A stretch of 64,000 nt of DNA from IMG/VR virus record IMGVR_UViG_3300025000_000004, one strand, 5' to 3'. This stretch comes from an uncultured virus (IMG/VR IMGVR_UViG_3300025000_000004) (lineage: Duplodnaviria; Heunggongvirae; Uroviricota; Caudoviricetes; Crassvirales). A program made the translations under genes and the position numbers. Position 1 is the first letter of the stretch. The number at the start of each line of letters is the position of its first letter. This document shows positions 3,615 to 64,000 of this stretch, one piece after another. Under the pieces are notes generated by a model. It saw nothing but the letters and a program-made list of their open reading frames with translations. It ran no database searches and was not told the DNA's origin.

Positions 3615-4565
3615 ATGGCTAAAATAAAAGAAGAAGAAATGATTGAAAAGGGTAAGACGGAAACAGCTAATACAGCATTTCGCTTACCAATAACTAAAGT
3701 CCACGTGAAGCCTATACTCCGTAAAGGAGTATGGCTTCCTGAGGGACACTCAGGGCACTTCATGTACGACAATACGAGTATTATTGTACAAGTTCCGATT
3801 GACAAGTTCACAGGAAGACTGAAGAACCCTTTGACAAAAGATGAACAAACGTTCTTTGAAACAAGTGCTGGTCTTGATCTTAAATCCGGAGATCTGAATC
3901 CTTATAAGAAAGATGATAATTTCTGGACTGATTTCAGGGTAAGAATCAGGAAAAGTGATAGTATCGTAAGTGACAAAACAGTTCTTATGACTCTCGATCT
4001 TAGTGACCCGATACAGTATCTGCAATATAAAGTGTTGTTACTCAACGCTACTCCTGAGGGAGGTATTGTAGCACCAAGTTGGGAGACAAGAGAAGATAGC
4101 GGAACTTATAAAGTTGCTCTGGTTCATGAAGGTCAGCAACATGCAGATAAGGTTAAAAAGGCAGACAAGATGAAACTTGCTTATAAATATGTAGGTAAGA
4201 TTGACTCCTCAGAAGAAGCGATGTACGACTTCCTGACAGTCTACTATCTTGAGAATGCTAAGAGTAAGCGTCCATCTGTTGATTCAGGAAAGGATTTCTA
4301 CTATTCAGAAATTCAGGATCTTATAGATAATGACCTTGATGGTGTTGTTGAAATCATTGAAGATTCAGACAATTACGAATATAAACTGCTTGTTCATAGA
4401 GGTTTAAAGATCGGTGCTTTAAAAATGGTTGGTGGTAACAAACTTGAGACTATTGACGGAATTCCAATTGGTAACAGCCTTTATCAGGCAATACAATGGT
4501 TCAAAGACGATAGACATCAGGATGAATATTTAAGACTGAAAAATCAGATTGAGCTTGCTAAATAA
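3615..4565 (+). CDS. Conserved crAss-like protein downstream of MCP
   Basis: 316 aa with LDLSDPIQYLQYKVL motif; post-MCP position. Confidence 0.6.
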   Translation: MAKIKEEEMIEKGKTETANTAFRLPITKVHVKPILRKGVWLPEGHSGHFMYDNTSIIVQVPIDKFTGRLKNPLTKDEQTFFETSAGLDLKSGDLNPYKKDDNFWTDFRVRIRKSDSIVSDKTVLMTLDLSDPIQYLQYKVLLLNATPEGGIVAPSWETREDSGTYKVALVHEGQQHADKVKKADKMKLAYKYVGKIDSSEEAMYDFLTVYYLENAKSKRPSVDSGKDFYYSEIQDLIDNDLDGVVEIIEDSDNYEYKLLVHRGLKIGALKMVGGNKLETIDGIPIGNSLYQAIQWFKDDRHQDEYLRLKNQIELAK

Positions 4566-51734: not shown

Positions 51735-51866
51735 CAAGAGAGATTACCAGCGATAGTTGTTTTGAAGCATAATGTAGGGATCGAACCTACGTCATTTTGA
51801 TTAGAATTCAAATGCTCCACCAACTGAGCTAATTGTGCGAAGTAACTATCCTCTTTACTACTCTTG
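51735..51866 (-). ncRNA. Y-like RNA A: tRNA(UCU)-like cloverleaf (51767-51838) with acceptor stem extended by the conserved helix
   Basis: CAAGAG/CTCTTG and GATAGTT/AACTATC stems flank a complete cloverleaf; motif TAGTAA-N4-GATAGTTACTTCG. Confidence 0.7.
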
Positions 51867-51870
51867 TTTG

Positions 51871-51942
51871 TAGCGGGTGGGAGAATTGAACTCCCGACTC
51901 TCAGCCTATGAAACTGCTTATCTACCACTGATATAACCCGCA
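51871..51942 (-). tRNA. tRNA with CAT anticodon (Met/fMet-like; 1:72 unpaired)
   Basis: GCGGGT/ACCCGC acceptor, TATC/GATA D-stem, loop TTCATAG, GGGAG-TTCAATT-CTCCC T-arm. Confidence 0.75.
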
Positions 51943-51948
51943 ATATTA

Positions 51949-52106
51949 AAATTATAGAGAAACCGATAAGACTGTCTTTGTTTATACAAATCCTAAATTT
52001 GTTGCCTGTACCAATTCGGCTATTCCCCCAGTTATTATTAATTAGCGGGGGAACTTGGACTCGAACCAAGAAATCGAAGTAAGTCTCATTCTTACTACTA
52101 TAATTT
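51949..52106 (-). ncRNA. Y-like RNA C: circularly permuted tRNA-Leu(UAG)-like domain joined to the conserved helix at the variable arm
   Basis: Order: AAATTATAG stem, motif, T-arm (CTTGG TTCGAGT CCAAG), TTCCCCC, loop, GGGGGAA, D-arm, ACAAA TTTAGGA TTTGT, AGTCTT, CTATAATTT. Confidence 0.75.
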
Positions 52107-52108
52107 AG

Positions 52109-52257
52109 TGGGGGAGGCTGGAATCGAACCAACTTTTTCATTTTTCAAGATGAAAGGTTTACCTACGAAGTAACTCTCAAAATCACAACTTGTCAACGAC
52201 CCGGTAAGTCCCGGTCTAAAGAGAAAACTCTCAAGAGTGTTTTCAAATTACTCCCCC
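52109..52257 (-). ncRNA. Y-like RNA D: tRNA-like (UGA-type loop) with the conserved helix inserted in place of the D-arm
   Basis: GGGGGAG/CTCCCCC acceptor, GTTGG TTCGATT CCAGC T-arm, TTTCAT/ATGAAA anticodon stem; insert ACTCTT..hairpin..GAGAGTTACTTCG. Confidence 0.7.
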
Positions 52258-52290
52258 GTTTTATTATTTAAAAGAACATGTCAGAAAAAA

Positions 52291-52389
52291 GAAAGAAAAA
52301 AGAAAGAAAAGTGGAAGAGACTGGTTTCTATTAAAGATTTACAAGCTTTTTACGAAGTAAGTCTCTTCCTTACTATTCTTTTTTCTTTC
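52291..52389 (-). ncRNA. Y-like RNA E: conserved helix with no tRNA domain
   Basis: 14-bp GAAAGAAAAAAGAA/TTCTTTTTTCTTTC stem, TAGTAA/ACTTTTCT internal element, GGAAGAGACT/AGTCTCTTCC, TACTTCG; starts just after a promoter. Confidence 0.7.
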
Positions 52390-52394
52390 ATGTA

Positions 52395-52426
52395 CAAATG
52401 TAATATATTAGATTGGATAATCCAAA
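52395..52426 (-). promoter_or_regulatory. Bacteroidota-type promoter driving the Y-like RNA cluster
   Basis: Minus strand TTTG-N20-TACATTTG immediately after the TROVE stop codon. Confidence 0.75.
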
Positions 52427-56404: not shown

Positions 56405-56478
56405 TGGTCGCCCCACCAAGACTCGAACTTGAACTCTGAGATCCAAAATCTCATATGCTACCATTACATAATAGGGCA
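56405..56478 (-). tRNA. trnQ: tRNA-Gln(TTG), encoded CCA
   Basis: Cloverleaf; anticodon loop TTTTGGA. Confidence 0.88.
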
Positions 56479-56479
56479 G

Positions 56480-56554
56480 TGCTCAAGGATGGATTTGAAC
56501 CACCGACTCCGAACTTATCAGATTCGTACTCTAACCAAGCTGAGTTACATGAGC
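56480..56554 (-). tRNA. trnI: tRNA-Ile(GAT)
   Basis: Cloverleaf; loop CTGATAA. Confidence 0.9.
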
Positions 56555-56565
56555 ATATTCAGACG

Positions 56566-56817
56566 TTATTCGATCTTCATTGTTTTAAGATCGAATCTTT
56601 TGTATCTTCTTTTTTCATATTCTTCAATCGGAACATTGAATACACTATATAATGCATAAAATGCAACGATAAAACCATGAATAAAGAAAATGACCCGTAA
56701 TAGTTTCCAATTTACTTGAGTTATATCTTCATTAAATATCAAAATTAAACCGAATAATCCAATTAATATTGAAGTTATGAAGATAAAGAACCAAAATAAC
56801 ATTTTTGTTGTTGTCAT
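56566..56817 (-). CDS. Small membrane protein
   Basis: Two TM segments. Confidence 0.5.
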   Translation of the reverse strand: MTTTKMLFWFFIFITSILIGLFGLILIFNEDITQVNWKLLRVIFFIHGFIVAFYALYSVFNVPIEEYEKRRYKRFDLKTMKIE

Positions 56818-56829
56818 TTCTCTTGTATT

Positions 56830-57081
56830 TTAGTGATTACAATCATTCATGTAAAAATCTATTTGACCATCGGCATGTTTTAAAAGATCCTTAAGTCTTT
56901 CGACTTCCTCTTTAAGTTCATTTCTCTGCTGAAGTAGCTCTGTACTTCTAAGAACAGTATAGGCTTCCATAGCATCAAGTGCAACACCAATAGATACTAA
57001 ATGTAAAGGGCAAATTATCTGGCTCATGCTCTTATGCCTTTGAAGTAATTCCTCTGCCTGTTTTCTTTCTTCTGTTGTCAT
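56830..57081 (-). CDS. Hypothetical coiled-coil protein
   Basis: 83 aa ORF. Confidence 0.5.
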   Translation of the reverse strand: MTTEERKQAEELLQRHKSMSQIICPLHLVSIGVALDAMEAYTVLRSTELLQQRNELKEEVERLKDLLKHADGQIDFYMNDCNH

Positions 57082-57191
57082 TTTAACATCCGTTTTTTAT
57101 TGCAAGTATAGCAAACACTACTATTATAGCTATTACACAACCTATAACTACATTTGCTTGGAATTGTCCGTTATCAATATACTTTATCTCT

Positions 57192-57407
57192 TTAACGTTT
57201 TGAATTATACACTTTATTATTTTTCTCACGCCATTGATTATCCCACATATCACGATATGTATTACATCCGCAAGATTGATTGCTTTTTGGCATTATCATA
57301 TTCTTACCTTGTGGATAACGGGAATAATAAGGTTGATATGCATTCTTACTACAGCTTGAAGCTACCAGTAAAAAAAGAACGAAGAGAATAGTAATCGTTT
57401 TCTTCAT
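57192..57407 (-). CDS. Small lipoprotein
   Basis: MKKTITILFVLFLLVASSC lipobox-like signal. Confidence 0.55.
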   Translation of the reverse strand: MKKTITILFVLFLLVASSCSKNAYQPYYSRYPQGKNMIMPKSNQSCGCNTYRDMWDNQWREKNNKVYNSKR

Positions 57408-57438
57408 AGTATTGATTTTAATTATAACTTTATTATAG

Positions 57439-57511
57439 CGGAACGTGAGAGACTCGAACTCTAACCACCTGCGTGACAGGCAGGGATACTAACCATTATA
57501 CGACACGCTCC
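57439..57511 (-). tRNA. trnD: tRNA-Asp(GTC)
   Basis: Cloverleaf; CCTGC CTGTCAC GCAGG. Confidence 0.88.
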
Positions 57512-57515
57512 ATTG

Positions 57516-57588
57516 CACACTGGGAACGGCTCGAACATTCGACCTTCTGTTTTGGAGACAGACATTCTACCAACTGAACTACCAGTGC
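57516..57588 (-). tRNA. trnW: tRNA-Trp(CCA)
   Basis: Cloverleaf; TCTGT CTCCAAA ACAGA. Confidence 0.9.
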
Positions 57589-57593
57589 GTTAG

Positions 57594-57667
57594 TTGACCC
57601 TACCGGGAATGATCCGATGATCCCCTGATTATGAGTCAGGTGCTTTAACCGTCTAAGCTAAGGGTCA
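57594..57667 (-). tRNA. tRNA(CAT), probably Ile2 (lysidine) rather than Met
   Basis: CCTGA CTCATAA TCAGG; atypical T-loop ATCATTC; the operon leader has two ATA codons (inference). Confidence 0.75.
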
Positions 57668-57671
57668 ATAG

Positions 57672-57743
57672 CGGACACAGAAGGAGTCGAACCTACGACC
57701 AATTGGTTAACAGCCAACTGCTCTACCTCTGAGCTATGTGTCC
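57672..57743 (-). tRNA. trnN: tRNA-Asn(GTT)
   Basis: Cloverleaf; loop CTGTTAA. Confidence 0.9.
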
Positions 57744-57749
57744 TTTATA

Positions 57750-57968
57750 TTATCTATCAAGCAATCCAACTATTATCTGAGCAAAAATTATTATTAGTAA
57801 CATCAACAACATAAGTCCTATTGCTAACCCAAGAGGTAACCAAATAGGAGAAAATACCCACCACCAAGAAATATCAATTACATGTGTAAGTTTAAGAACT
57901 ATTAACACTATTGTAACCAATGTCATTGATGGACCAAAATTAATGTTTACTGCTTCTTTGTTGCTCAT
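57750..57968 (-). CDS. Small membrane protein
   Basis: LIVLKLTHVIDISWWWVFSPIW; two TM segments. Confidence 0.6.
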   Translation of the reverse strand: MSNKEAVNINFGPSMTLVTIVLIVLKLTHVIDISWWWVFSPIWLPLGLAIGLMLLMLLIIIFAQIIVGLLDR

Positions 57969-58275
57969 TGTTCTGAGGTTTTAAATGGTCATCACTATAT
58001 GCTCCTAACCATTTCTCTATTCTCATTGATAATTTTACTCCTGAGAGTGAACCTGCAACCGTTCCTAATACATAAGGAACAAATAGCATCCAGTTCATAT
58101 CAGATAGAACGAGTTCACGAAAGGTTAAGAACCAAATTGTATTCGAGAACGTTGCAGCGATAAGATGATATGTCATGTTATTTCTGTTTCTGCTTCTCGA
58201 TACTATACTAAAACTTACATTCTGTATATATGCAAGTATAAGAATTTTTATTGAGGAATAGATCATGTTATACAA
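57940..58275 (-). CDS. Small membrane protein
   Basis: Three hydrophobic segments; YVLGTVAGSLSG. Confidence 0.55.
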   Translation of the reverse strand: MYNMIYSSIKILILAYIQNVSFSIVSRSRNRNNMTYHLIAATFSNTIWFLTFRELVLSDMNWMLFVPYVLGTVAGSLSGVKLSMRIEKWLGAYSDDHLKPQNNEQQRSSKH

Positions 58276-58505
58276 ATTGCGTTAACATCTGCTTTATCTA
58301 TCTCCCCGTCTCCCAACATATTAATGGTGACGATAACATCATCGTTTCTGTCAGAAGATTCAATCTTACAAAGAGTTGGTTCATAATGAACCTTCTTGTA
58401 ATCATTTCCCTCGTCATCAGTTGAAAAGACTACTTCCATATCTTCACGATTAGAAATATCTTTCGTATGATGTTCGATTGCTTTTAAAAATTGTCCTAAA
58501 TTCAT
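58263..58505 (-). CDS. Hypothetical protein (start revised; the track start lies upstream, across the tRNA)
   Basis: MNLGQFL..STDDEGN..NAICIT; ATG at 58505, downstream of tRNA-Ala. Confidence 0.55.
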   Translation of the reverse strand: MNLGQFLKAIEHHTKDISNREDMEVVFSTDDEGNDYKKVHYEPTLCKIESSDRNDDVIVTINMLGDGEIDKADVNAICIT

Positions 58506-58528
58506 AATGTCAAAGAGCATTAAATTAG

Positions 58529-58601
58529 TGGAGTTGAAGGGATTTGAACCCTTATCCTTCACAGTGCAAGTGTGACGCTCAACCAGTTGAGCTACAACCC
58601 C
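58529..58601 (-). tRNA. trnA: tRNA-Ala(TGC)
   Basis: Cloverleaf; G3:U70 pair; loop CTTGCAC. Confidence 0.9.
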
Positions 58602-58605
58602 ATAA

Positions 58606-58717
58606 AGTATAGAAGACAGAATATCGTTCCCCATCAGTGCAAAGCCTCAGCAATTGACCACTTGCATAATGAAATCCTTCGAGGCGATGGACGAATTGCT
58701 CACTCATCTTCTATACT
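58606..58717 (-). ncRNA. Unidentified structured (pseudoknot-capable) RNA between tRNA-Val and tRNA-Ala
   Basis: 11-bp terminal stem AGTATAGAAGA/TCTTCTATACT; CCATC/GATGG; crossing GCCTC/GAGGC and TGCAA/TTGCA. Confidence 0.55.
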
Positions 58718-58794
58718 GGTGCTTCTTGCAGGATTTGAACCTACGACTTCCACCTTGTAAGGGTGGCACTTTCAACCAACTGAGTTAAAGAAGC
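58717..58794 (-). tRNA. trnV: tRNA-Val(TAC), encoded CCA
   Basis: Cloverleaf; CCACC CTTACAA GGTGG. Confidence 0.9.
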
Positions 58795-58826
58795 AATAAA
58801 AAACCCCTGACTTTTGATCAGGGGTT
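58795..58826 (-). terminator. Attenuator terminator of tRNA operon 2
   Basis: AACCCCTGA-TCAAAAG-TCAGGGGTT then TTTTATT, immediately before tRNA-Val. Confidence 0.8.
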
Positions 58827-58851
58827 CTATTTGACTAACATTCTTGTTCAG

Positions 58852-58926
58852 TTATAAATATAGAAATCCCCTGCCAGATCTTTGATCAGCTACTTGATTC
58901 CAAATATTTATGACTACTATGAGCAT
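58852..58926 (-). CDS. Leader peptide 2, MLIVVINIWNQVADQRSGRGFLYL (not in ORF track)
   Basis: ATG 58926 to TAA 58852, between promoter and terminator; its 3' end pairs with the terminator 5' arm. Confidence 0.7.
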   Translation of the reverse strand: MLIVVINIWNQVADQRSGRGFLYL

Positions 58927-58948
58927 TTCAATTCAATTGTTTAAGACG

Positions 58949-58980
58949 CAAATATATGTAATAGATATTTAATCTCCAAA
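58949..58980 (-). promoter_or_regulatory. Bacteroidota-type promoter of tRNA operon 2
   Basis: TTTG-N20-TATATTTG. Confidence 0.8.
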
Positions 58981-59712
58981 TTATCTGCGACCTTTTTCTT
59001 CAGGATAAAGATTTTTTACTGTATCAGACTGCCAATATTTTTTTGTGTAAACATCCATAAGAGTTAATTTACCTTCCCATCCTGCACCCTGATCAAGATT
59101 CCAGACATTGGAAACGTGAACTGGTTTAAGACTCTTATCTGCATAAGATGTAGTTGTATGACCAATAAATACTTCTTTATAACATTCTACTGTATTCTTG
59201 GCTTCATCAGGATGAGTTATATTGAAACTATGATGCATTGATGCTACAGTATACAAATGTCTATCCCACATTAAATCTCCCGGTAATTGTTCACTAATTG
59301 GATATTTCCAAGCAAATCCTCCATGTACAAACAGCATCCCATCAAATTCGTAATAGAAAACAGCTTTAGACAAGAATTTCTCGTGACGTTTAGCTATCTT
59401 ATTTCCTTCCTTTTTAAAGTGTCTGAGATATGCATCAATCGTAGCCTGACCTCCCTGGAGTGTCCATATAGCAGGGACATTACCAAACATAAACCACTGG
59501 TATAACCAATTGTCGTGATTACCCATAATATAGGTAAGATTCTTTATTTTAAGGAGTTCCTCAAAACATTCAGGAACTTCACTCCATCCATCGGCTACAT
59601 CACCAAGGCATATCAGAGTATCTTCTTTATAGTTAAAACTCGATAACTCAAGAACCTGCTTTAATGCTCTGTATGCACCATGTATGTCTCCTATTGCAAA
59701 TACTCTTTTCAT
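58981..59712 (-). CDS. Calcineurin-like metallophosphoesterase (lambda NinI/PrpA-like)
   Basis: GDIHG, LGDVADG, GNHD, FVHGG, GHT and LDQG motifs. Confidence 0.9.
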   Translation of the reverse strand: MKRVFAIGDIHGAYRALKQVLELSSFNYKEDTLICLGDVADGWSEVPECFEELLKIKNLTYIMGNHDNWLYQWFMFGNVPAIWTLQGGQATIDAYLRHFKKEGNKIAKRHEKFLSKAVFYYEFDGMLFVHGGFAWKYPISEQLPGDLMWDRHLYTVASMHHSFNITHPDEAKNTVECYKEVFIGHTTTSYADKSLKPVHVSNVWNLDQGAGWEGKLTLMDVYTKKYWQSDTVKNLYPEEKGRR

Positions 59713-59713
59713 A

Positions 59714-60193
59714 TTATGATAACATTAGTTCAATGTAATTAAATTTATCTCCAAGTGCTTCAGTAATATTAATCTCATTACCTTCAAATCCTCTGAGTTG
59801 ATTATTATACAATAGTATATATTTTGGTACTTTTAATTCTTTTTTTACAAATTTCTTACCTTTCTCGGTAATCTTCCAAAATCCACTTGTTCTGGTTTTT
59901 GTATCATTAGAGTCTTTTTCAAGTTCGTCTATCATTCCCCAATACTTAAGTTTTGATAACTCACTTCCACCAATACCAAAATCTATACCGAGTAAATCAT
60001 TGTAAATGTGAAAATATTCAACATCTGGATTTGATTTACTTTTTCTGTATAAAAGAATTAGAGTTCGTGCCATTGAAGTGTTCAATTTTCGTTTATACAA
60101 TTTAACAAATTGATTACAACAAGGACAAACAACACCTTTTTTATAATTTTCTCTTAAAAATTGTTTTGCTTCTCTTAATGTTTCCATATACAC
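59714..60193 (-). CDS. Hypothetical protein, possible winged-helix DNA binding
   Basis: CPCC; KLKYWGMI..SGFWKITEKG. Confidence 0.55.
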   Translation of the reverse strand: MYMETLREAKQFLRENYKKGVVCPCCNQFVKLYKRKLNTSMARTLILLYRKSKSNPDVEYFHIYNDLLGIDFGIGGSELSKLKYWGMIDELEKDSNDTKTRTSGFWKITEKGKKFVKKELKVPKYILLYNNQLRGFEGNEINITEALGDKFNYIELMLS

Positions 60194-61056: not shown

Positions 61057-61232
61057 AAGTACATTACCATCTCCAGTTTTTATTTATGGTTTGTTCCCCA
61101 TAACCTGTTTCTGTGCACAGAAGAGCAGGAACTTGAACAGGACACTACAGACAAATAGGGTAGCTATCTCCCGAAGCCGTAGTCTGTTTCAACACAACCT
61201 TTCGGAAACGTGTGCTCTGTAGTAATGTACTT
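61057..61232 (-). ncRNA. Unidentified multibranch structured RNA within tRNA operon 1
   Basis: 11-bp terminal stem AAGTACATTAC/GTAATGTACTT enclosing several hairpins. Confidence 0.55.
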
Positions 61233-62077: not shown

Positions 62078-62080
62078 AAT

Positions 62081-62111
62081 AAAAAAGGTCCTGCTATTTC
62101 TAACAGGACCT
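62081..62111 (-). terminator. Attenuator terminator of tRNA operon 1
   Basis: AGGTCCTGTTA-GAAA-TAGCAGGACCT then TTTTT, 3 nt before tRNA-Thr. Confidence 0.8.
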
Positions 62112-62165
62112 CTCACCCAACTAAATCTACTAATCACTACTAACAAAAAGCCACTTTCCAGAGAT

Positions 62166-62243
62166 TTAGGTGTATAAGTCCTGTACGACAAGGGTTTTAC
62201 CCTTGCCAGTTTTTGAGGAATATGTACAACTAAATCGTTTCAT
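62166..62243 (-). CDS. Leader peptide 1, MKRFSCTYSSKTGKGKTLVVQDLYT (not in ORF track)
   Basis: ATG 62243 to TAA 62166, 4 nt after the -7 box; its 3' end pairs with the terminator 5' arm. Confidence 0.7.
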   Translation of the reverse strand: MKRFSCTYSSKTGKGKTLVVQDLYT

Positions 62244-62247
62244 GTCG

Positions 62248-62278
62248 CAAATATAAAACATAGGTTTGAGAAATCAAA
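62248..62278 (-). promoter_or_regulatory. Bacteroidota-type promoter of tRNA operon 1
   Basis: TTTG-N19-TATATTTG. Confidence 0.8.
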
Positions 62279-63961: not shown

Positions 63962-64000
63962 CTATATGTTTTTTAATTAATAAATCTGTGCTCTGAGAGA

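Follow-up and report, generated by a model that had tools for sequence, protein, structure and literature searches.

We analyzed a 64,000-nucleotide stretch of DNA from an uncultured crAss-like phage (IMG/VR record IMGVR_UViG_3300025000_000004, hereafter the window) and found that the 186-nt gap separating tRNA-Val(tac) at 58794 from the stop codon of a NinI-like phosphatase gene at 58981 holds a candidate regulatory element, which on the basis of its sequence and predicted folds is most probably a ribosome-mediated (leader-peptide) transcription attenuator gating a phage tRNA operon. On the minus strand the gap contains, in this order, a promoter-like box, a 24-codon open reading frame (ORF), a 23-nt spacer, a terminator hairpin and tRNA-Val. 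The layout of an attenuator is thus present in silico: a leader ORF composed of codons for its own tRNA set lies between the promoter-like box and tRNA-Val, a terminator precedes the first tRNA, the 5' strand of an antiterminator is located in the 3' end of the ORF, and a 1:2 anti-antiterminator helix overlaps the regulatory codons. We refer to this element as attenuator 2 and to its ORF as leader 2. Its parts are as follows.

58949..58980, minus strand: promoter-like site of Bacteroidota type (TTTG at 58980..58977, 20-nt spacer, TATATTTG at 58956..58949), beginning 1 base past the stop codon of the phosphatase-like gene
58852..58926, minus strand: leader short ORF (sORF), 24 codons plus TAA, encoding MLIVVINIWNQVADQRSGRGFLYL, with homologous ORFs in 6 relatives
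58882..58920, minus strand: regulatory codons 3-15 (ATA GTA GTC ATA AAT ATT TGG AAT CAA GTA GCT GAT CAA)
58896..58916, minus strand: region 1, predicted to form the 5' side of helix P1 (anti-antiterminator) within the ORF, from the minimum free energy (MFE) and centroid folds
58873..58890, minus strand: apical hairpin of P1, from folding
58849..58873, minus strand: region 2, the 3' end of the sORF with its stop codon, from folding and duplex energy
58817..58830, minus strand: region 3, AUAGAACCCCUGAU, the predicted antiterminator 3' strand and at the same time terminator 5' arm, from folding and duplex energy
58795..58828, minus strand: predicted intrinsic terminator, with a 12-pair stem (58828..58800), a 5-nt loop and the tail UUUUUUAUU
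56405..58794, minus strand: controlled unit of 8 tRNAs with small ORFs in between

An initial annotation of this DNA had described the sORF as matching all eight downstream tRNAs; the sORF is real and the match holds. The sORF reads ATG CTC ATA GTA GTC ATA AAT ATT TGG AAT CAA GTA GCT (codons 1-13) and GAT CAA AGA TCT GGC AGG GGA TTT CTA TAT TTA TAA (codons 14-24 and stop), and the tRNAs of the controlled unit follow in the order Val-tac, Ala-tgc, Asn-gtt, CAT, Trp-cca, Asp-gtc, Ile-gat and Gln-ttg. Codons 3-15 specify no amino acids other than Ile, Val, Asn, Trp, Gln, Ala and Asp, so that all eight tRNAs are represented. The matches of GTC to Val-UAC and of GCT to Ala-UGC require extended wobble at U34, and the match of ATA requires that the CAT tRNA be a lysidine-type isoleucine tRNA (Ile2). 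Six-frame translation of the window gives 1245 sORFs of 12-80 aa, each of which we scored by its longest run of residues from the set {V,A,N,I,W,D,Q}. The run of 13 residues in leader 2 ranks first among the 1245, with a runner-up of 9, and a run of this kind has P ~ 1.8e-5 in a random 23-codon peptide drawn from the phage's codon usage. The codon-set match is confirmed to lie far beyond chance, and it is clearest by amino acid rather than by strict codon. The 6 relatives encode Ala with GCG, a strict match, and their strict codon matches amount to 14-17 of 24, compared with 7.3 expected.

RNA folding places the two alternative structures in the expected segments. In all 11 leaders that we collected from this phage and its relatives, the full-length MFE structure consists of P1 (1:2) and the terminator (3:4). 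The fold z-score is -3.80 for leader 2, with 0 of 200 shuffles as good, and -4.17 for leader 1, the leader of a second element in the window. It had been suggested that a GATC-AAA-GATC hairpin follows the regulatory codons; this hairpin exists (58887..58877), but folding makes it merely the apex of the long 1:2 helix P1. The proposed pairing of CAGGGG-AU-UUCUAU with AUAGAA-CCCCUG was reproduced by folding. Region 2 can pair either with region 1, forming P1, or via CAGGGGAUUUCUAU (58873..58860) with region 3, forming the antiterminator. We mimicked a stalled ribosome by ending the transcript before the terminator 3' arm and masking at least 30 nt of region 1, upon which the 2:3 antiterminator forms in 10 of 10 leaders of types 1 and 2 (L1/L2); the antiterminator of the remaining leader, which belongs to cluster 0 of the IMG/VR relative G002, was assessed by duplex energy only. 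The antiterminator duplex of leader 2 has an energy of -16.3 kcal/mol (p = 0.0023 relative to 3000 33-mers drawn at random from the window), and in the same comparison p lies between 0.0003 and 0.009 in 10 of the 11 leaders and is 0.043 in the remaining one. The terminator stem contains 5 G-C pairs among its 12, the hairpin has a predicted energy of about -17 kcal/mol and is followed by a U6 tail, and the U-tract reaches 58795, 1 base short of tRNA-Val. As the tail adjoins tRNA-Val, there is no space for a second promoter, and the tRNAs therefore rely on read-through; the 5' leader of the read-through transcript would be removed by RNase P.

Further leader/terminator/cluster units with the same logic (INDEPENDENTLY) were found in the window, in G002 and in the metagenome relative L070. 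G002 is a 99.8-kb genome whose head protein is 90% identical to that of the window phage; its tRNA region is 71-86% identical, within the tRNAs only, its tRNA order is that of the window, and it contains 3 terminators, each directly 5' of a tRNA. The additional elements in the window and G002 are listed here.

62278..62078, minus strand: attenuator 1 of the window, with a TTTG-N19-TATATTTG box, the sORF MKRFSCTYSSKTGKGKTLVVQDLYT, P1, antiterminator and terminator helices, and the terminator before tRNA-Thr
L054 634-774, plus strand: G002 leader MKVTTLHLLPEEPSKQRVLE; its 15-pair terminator stands immediately 5' of tRNA-Pro/Glu/His/Leu
G002 leader MLVRFRYTKYSSCKGTSSARWDFYI, before Thr..Ser
G002 leader M(M)KTLVINIWNQIDVDQAIYNQGTMY, before Val..Gln

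The terminator of attenuator 1 (14 pairs, 62114..62083) is the only other strong minus-strand terminator in the 50-64 kb region. Leader 1 contains the run KRFSCTYSSKTGKGKT, 16 residues drawn from {T,K,R,F,G,Y,C,S}, the amino-acid set of the ten tRNAs downstream (Thr..Ser(gct)), and this run also ranks first among the 1245 sORFs of the window. The TATATTTG box overlaps the first ATG of leader 1 (62261), so that the second ATG (62243, MKRFSC...) is the likelier start. In G002 all three leaders rank first of 274 locus sORFs for their own set, and in L070 both leaders rank first of 188; altogether, 7 of 7 leader-cluster units in three genomes rank first for their own set. A cross-matrix of leaders and tRNA sets yields runs of 8-18 for the own set versus 0-6 for the other sets. 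The earlier view that leader 2 follows the logic of attenuator 1 with unrelated sequence is borne out, since each leader ranks first for its own cluster, and G002 supplies a third leader. The three sets {P,E,H,L}, {T,K,R,F,G,Y,C,S} and {V,A,N,I,W,D,Q} are disjoint and together with a separate Met tRNA comprise all 20 amino acids. We slightly favor the broader reading that three unrelated attenuators with disjoint amino-acid sets each switch on the tRNA operon that cures their own stall, which would amount to a modular, demand-driven tRNA supply undescribed in print. By synteny with G002, the counterpart of the Pro/Glu/His/Leu leader should be located beyond window position 64000; L072, a metagenome copy of the window, ends short of the sequence beyond it. 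A search with the tRNA-Pro 24-mer (L054 775-798) returned 59 loci, and a leader is present at one of them (G002); the others are host-like tRNA-Pro contexts. In 58 other IMG/VR contigs (L075-L133) there is a tRNA-Pro whose first 24 nt match those of the phage gene exactly; most of these contigs carry it at a contig end or behind a TTACCTTTGC Bacteroides-type promoter. This shared start is consistent with a Bacteroidota host or a host-derived tRNA.

We compared leader 2 with homologous sequences. A search of metagenomes with the 5' 21-mer of tRNA-Val yielded 11 loci, 7 of which contain the leader (1 identical to the window, 1 a partial twin of L071 and 5 distinct); the other four (L065, L066, L068 and L069) are unrelated tRNA contexts without a leader. 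Together with the window and G002 this gives 7 distinct leader-2 sequences. A search with the junction 26-mer returned G002 as its sole match, and a degenerate VINIWNQ pattern run against viral contigs found 6 loci, of which only G002 has the leader, the other 5 being chance, intragenic matches without tRNAs. All seven sequences keep the ATG, a length of 24-25 codons and a stop codon (TAA or TAG) at a fixed place relative to the downstream helix, and they share the peptide core NIWNQ.D..QA. At leader positions 5-18, 16 of the 17 residue states found at variable positions fall within the tRNA set, compared with 5 of 22 elsewhere, and the exchanges there are between chemically unlike residues (V/N/I, D/I/N, I/V/D). 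Such a substitution pattern is what selection on which tRNA is called, rather than on a folded peptide, would predict. P1 is 85.9% paired over the seven homologues, with 7 pairs changed on both sides, versus 36-52% in slid controls. The terminator arms vary among the relatives (CCCCUGA/UCAGGGG; CCCUGAUU/AGUCAGGG; CCCCGAUC/GGUCGGGG), and region 2 co-varies with them such that complementarity is kept. Because the MAFFT alignment (A3) loses register in the terminator, we counted covariation for P1 only and took conservation of the terminator and antiterminator from per-sequence folds.

The initial annotation had further proposed that the two ATA codons imply a lysidine-type Ile2 tRNA, and this identity of the CAT tRNA at 57667..57593 is plausible from its sequence. 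The acceptor-stem pairs C4:G69 and C5:G68, which we take to be determinants of E. coli TilS, are present. The other CAT tRNA in the window (51942..51870, minus strand) has a U1.U72 mismatch followed by G2:C71 and C3:G70 and is Met-like. A weak hint with small margins comes from antisense matches to the Rfam family RF04354, which presumably models antisense plastid trnI-CAU: the best match is the tRNA at 57667..57593 (37.2 bits), its value in G002 is 32.1 bits, and the tRNA at 51942..51870 is not among the matches. Of the 1225 Ile codons in the 35 ORFs that are 150 aa or longer, 460 are ATA, and this codon is present in 7 of 7 leader-2 homologues. The U1.U72 at the top of the acceptor stem of the tRNA at 51942..51870 is initiator-like, and this tRNA is without the initiator's three anticodon-stem G-C pairs.

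The promoter-like site was defined by the pattern TTTG-N18-21-TANNTTTG (TAnnTTTG), and the TTTG / TAnnTTTG pattern agrees with the sigma-ABfr consensus as quoted in PMC7366714. All 4 matches of the pattern in the window are intergenic and face downstream genes, two of them being those of the leaders, and a TAnnTTT[G/A] box stands 5' of 9 of the 11 leaders.

These parts suggest the following mechanism. A host-type RNA polymerase would initiate at TTTG/TATATTTG and transcribe the 24-codon leader, whose codons 3-15 would sample every amino acid of the eight downstream tRNAs. When these are decoded fast, the ribosome would reach the TAA and cover region 2, the 3:4 terminator would form, and transcription would stop 1 base before tRNA-Val. 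When no ribosome is present, region 1 would keep region 2 in P1, again leaving the terminator to form and transcription to stop. If charged tRNA, from host and phage together, is scarce, a ribosome would stall at a sampler codon, melting P1 and setting region 2 free. Free region 2 could then pair with the emerging terminator 5' arm, the terminator would not form, and the polymerase would enter the tRNA genes. New tRNAs would relieve the stall, and the circuit would thus be a negative feedback loop in which the tRNAs are probably made mainly when ribosomes read the leader codons slowly. We infer translation of the sORF, ribosome stalling, termination efficiency and the physiological trigger from the arrangement of the parts.

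Several observations weigh against attenuation. The phage is uncultured and no RNA run was found to contain the sequence; the case consists of parts recognized in silico, their pairings, conservation and the codon match. With 42 nt masked and the whole leader present, the terminator is still the MFE structure in 9 of 11 leaders, and the antiterminator thus has to win kinetically, during transcription, as in classical attenuators. Strict Crick wobble shortens the run of leader 2 to 7, with the best sORF in the window reaching 8, and leader 1 is absent from the top strict-wobble runs; the signal accordingly lies at the amino-acid level, or extended U34 wobble is required. The 4 occurrences of the promoter pattern in the window are not significantly more than the 2.0 expected, since 18 of 100 shuffles contain at least as many, and the box was not found upstream of 2 of the 11 leaders. 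The distance from the box to the ATG is just 7 nt in 5 relatives, which implies near-leaderless mRNAs; 5' untranslated regions shorter than 10 nt make up ~3.7% of all in B. thetaiotaomicron by the figure given in PMC7366714. The 7 leader-2 sequences are close kin and their conservation does not represent seven independent events, and because the ATA-TGG-AAY-CAR core is also part of P1, its conservation is not creditable to coding alone. Finally, neither leader nor terminator was found in the close relatives G003 (3 tRNAs) and G004 (1 tRNA), and among the 23 annotated tRNAs of crAss001 (L135, 1683-5807) no coding-strand terminator adjoins a tRNA. A terminator-like match at 4156-4172 of crAss001 (5 pairs, between two tRNAs), the sole one on the coding strand in this array, was rejected because it adjoins no tRNA. 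The cultured model phage crAss001 seems to be without the attenuator system, and the element is not universal.

Among the alternatives, we consider it unlikely that the element is a translation-dependent switch with another input, such as ribosome availability or speed or amino-acid starvation, or with another output, such as RNA processing, RNA stability or Rho action. The better match by amino acid than by strict codon would fit a different input, and amino-acid limitation would cause an identical stall through shortage of charged tRNA; small ORFs also lie within the operon. Three disjoint leader/cluster sets are, however, hard to square with a general sensor, strict matches make up 14-17 of 24 codons in the 6 relatives (7.3 expected), and a hairpin followed by a U6 tail is a textbook intrinsic terminator. 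It is more doubtful still that the product of the sORF is a conserved micro-protein that serves a separate function and that the hairpins just stabilize or terminate its mRNA, a reading to which we give little credence. It would account for the core NIWNQ.D..QA kept in all 7 homologues, but the nucleotides of this core form one strand of P1, the replacements are chemically non-conservative and yet stay within the set, and in each of three unrelated leaders the amino acids are those of the tRNA cluster behind it. The three leader-1 peptides moreover have their composition in common but not their residue order.

An ordinary factor-independent terminator of the phosphatase-like operon, accompanied by a chance sORF and with the tRNAs arising from leaky read-through, appears very improbable. 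The hairpin does lie ~150 nt past the stop codon of the upstream gene, the upstream genes are co-oriented with the element, and 24-codon open frames are not rare in DNA of 36% GC. Chance leaves unaccounted for the first rank of the own-set run among 1245 sORFs and of 7 of 7 units in three genomes, the conserved frame, length and stop position of the ORF, the complementarity of its 3' end to the terminator 5' arm in 11 of 11 leaders, and the substitutions that keep the amino-acid set. Direct, T-box-like sensing of tRNA by the leader RNA without translation is scarcely credible: in its favor, terminator and antiterminator alternatives lie upstream of translation-related genes, yet there is no T-box or other Rfam match at E <= 1, eight tRNAs would demand eight specifiers, and the conserved ATG, frame and stop would be left unexplained. 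Attenuation by a translated leader remains our preferred reading.

The window is part of a crAss-like phage whose major head protein shares 36-38% identity with its counterparts in crAss001, IAS virus and other Crassvirales. The hosts of these matched phages are Bacteroides, Flavobacterium and Cellulophaga, and the host of the window phage is a probable member of the Bacteroidota; the DNA itself was found in groundwater and soil metagenomes. From ~64 kb to 51.6 kb all features, including 21 tRNA genes, lie on the minus strand. The upstream phosphatase-like protein has no relatives among the viral contigs searched, and the nearest available record, G001, shows no match. A distant blastn search of 58500-59800 against GenBank phages gave tRNA-level matches only, plus one 206-nt gene match (LR756500.1, locus L001), which has 5 tRNAs nearby. 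Interspersed among the tRNAs of cluster 2 (56566..58520, minus strand) are several small ORFs (56-111 aa), some with hydrophobic or lipoprotein-like products; the attenuator, if it works, would co-regulate these ORFs. Within tRNA cluster 1, with tRNA-Phe on one side and tRNA-Gly on the other, we noted a match to the Rfam freshwater-1 RNA (RF02979) at 61139..61078 on the minus strand (68 bits versus a gathering score of 72, E = 2.9e-14).

A further promoter-like box is located at 52426..52395, followed by a short ORF, MKEKRIVRKRLTS, in the region 52426..51838 (minus strand). The motif TTACTTCG occurs in 4 copies in the window, all of them in this region, compared with 1.4 expected window-wide; in a longer version it reads approximately TAGYAAGGA..CTTACTTCG. 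One copy extends precisely to the 5' end of tRNA-Arg(tct), two stand before pieces resembling tRNA 3' halves (GGTTCGA.TCC...CCCCC), and the motif is also found directly 5' of tRNAs in the leader-free relatives G003 (L062) and G004 (L063). It may represent another promoter type or a tRNA processing signal.

Expression of transfer RNA genes is generally held either to follow growth rate or to be constitutive, and the tRNA arrays of phages are usually treated as codon-usage or anti-defence cargo only. If our reading is true, the leader is a direct sensor of decoding capacity, and the tRNAs are both output and feedback signal of a circuit that would let the phage answer a codon-usage mismatch, or depletion or cleavage of host tRNAs during infection. 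The reading offers an explanation, open to experimental test, of the timing and purpose of tRNA expression by phages, and the element would provide a compact natural part (~190 nt) for codon-specific translation sensors. Textbook attenuation would be widened to a new class of targets and to Bacteroidota-type phages, in which leader-peptide attenuation is, to our knowledge, barely documented. Literature searches that covered listings and abstracts, with subscription-only papers outside their scope, returned no account of leader-peptide attenuation of tRNA genes. The principle, attenuation, is known; a tRNA operon would be a new target for it.

Multivalent leader-peptide attenuators are known from enterobacteria, including thrL (Thr/Ile), ilvL of ilvGMEDA (Leu/Val/Ile) and the ilvBN leader, along with others such as trpL, hisL, leuL and pheL. 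Like the thrL/ilvL type, our element comprises a promoter, a short ORF with regulatory codons, 1:2, 2:3 and 3:4 helices and a terminator before the first gene; in both, the 3' end of the ORF forms region 2 and read-through is expected upon ribosome stalling. The enterobacterial leaders carry tandem runs of codons for one to three amino acids, whereas leader 2 represents 7 amino acids (8 tRNAs) with 1-3 codons each. They control biosynthetic enzymes; here the controlled genes are tRNAs, and the product would relieve the stall directly. Unlike the enterobacterial attenuators, the element resides in a crAss-like phage with a probable Bacteroidota host, and it has no sequence or Rfam similarity to them: Rfam covariance models gave no match to 58795..58980 at E <= 1, T-box (RF00230) and known leaders included, the Trp, His, Leu, Thr and Phe leader families remained unmatched, and the returns were of tRNA type or unrelated and weak. 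The pheM leader of the E. coli pheST operon (phenylalanyl-tRNA synthetase) likewise places a component of the translation apparatus under leader-peptide attenuation, but its target is a synthetase and a single amino acid is involved, compared with tRNA genes and many amino acids here. T-box riboswitches (RF00230) also choose between terminator and antiterminator by tRNA status upstream of translation-related genes; they bind one uncharged tRNA independently of translation, whereas an ORF of conserved frame is central to the element described here.

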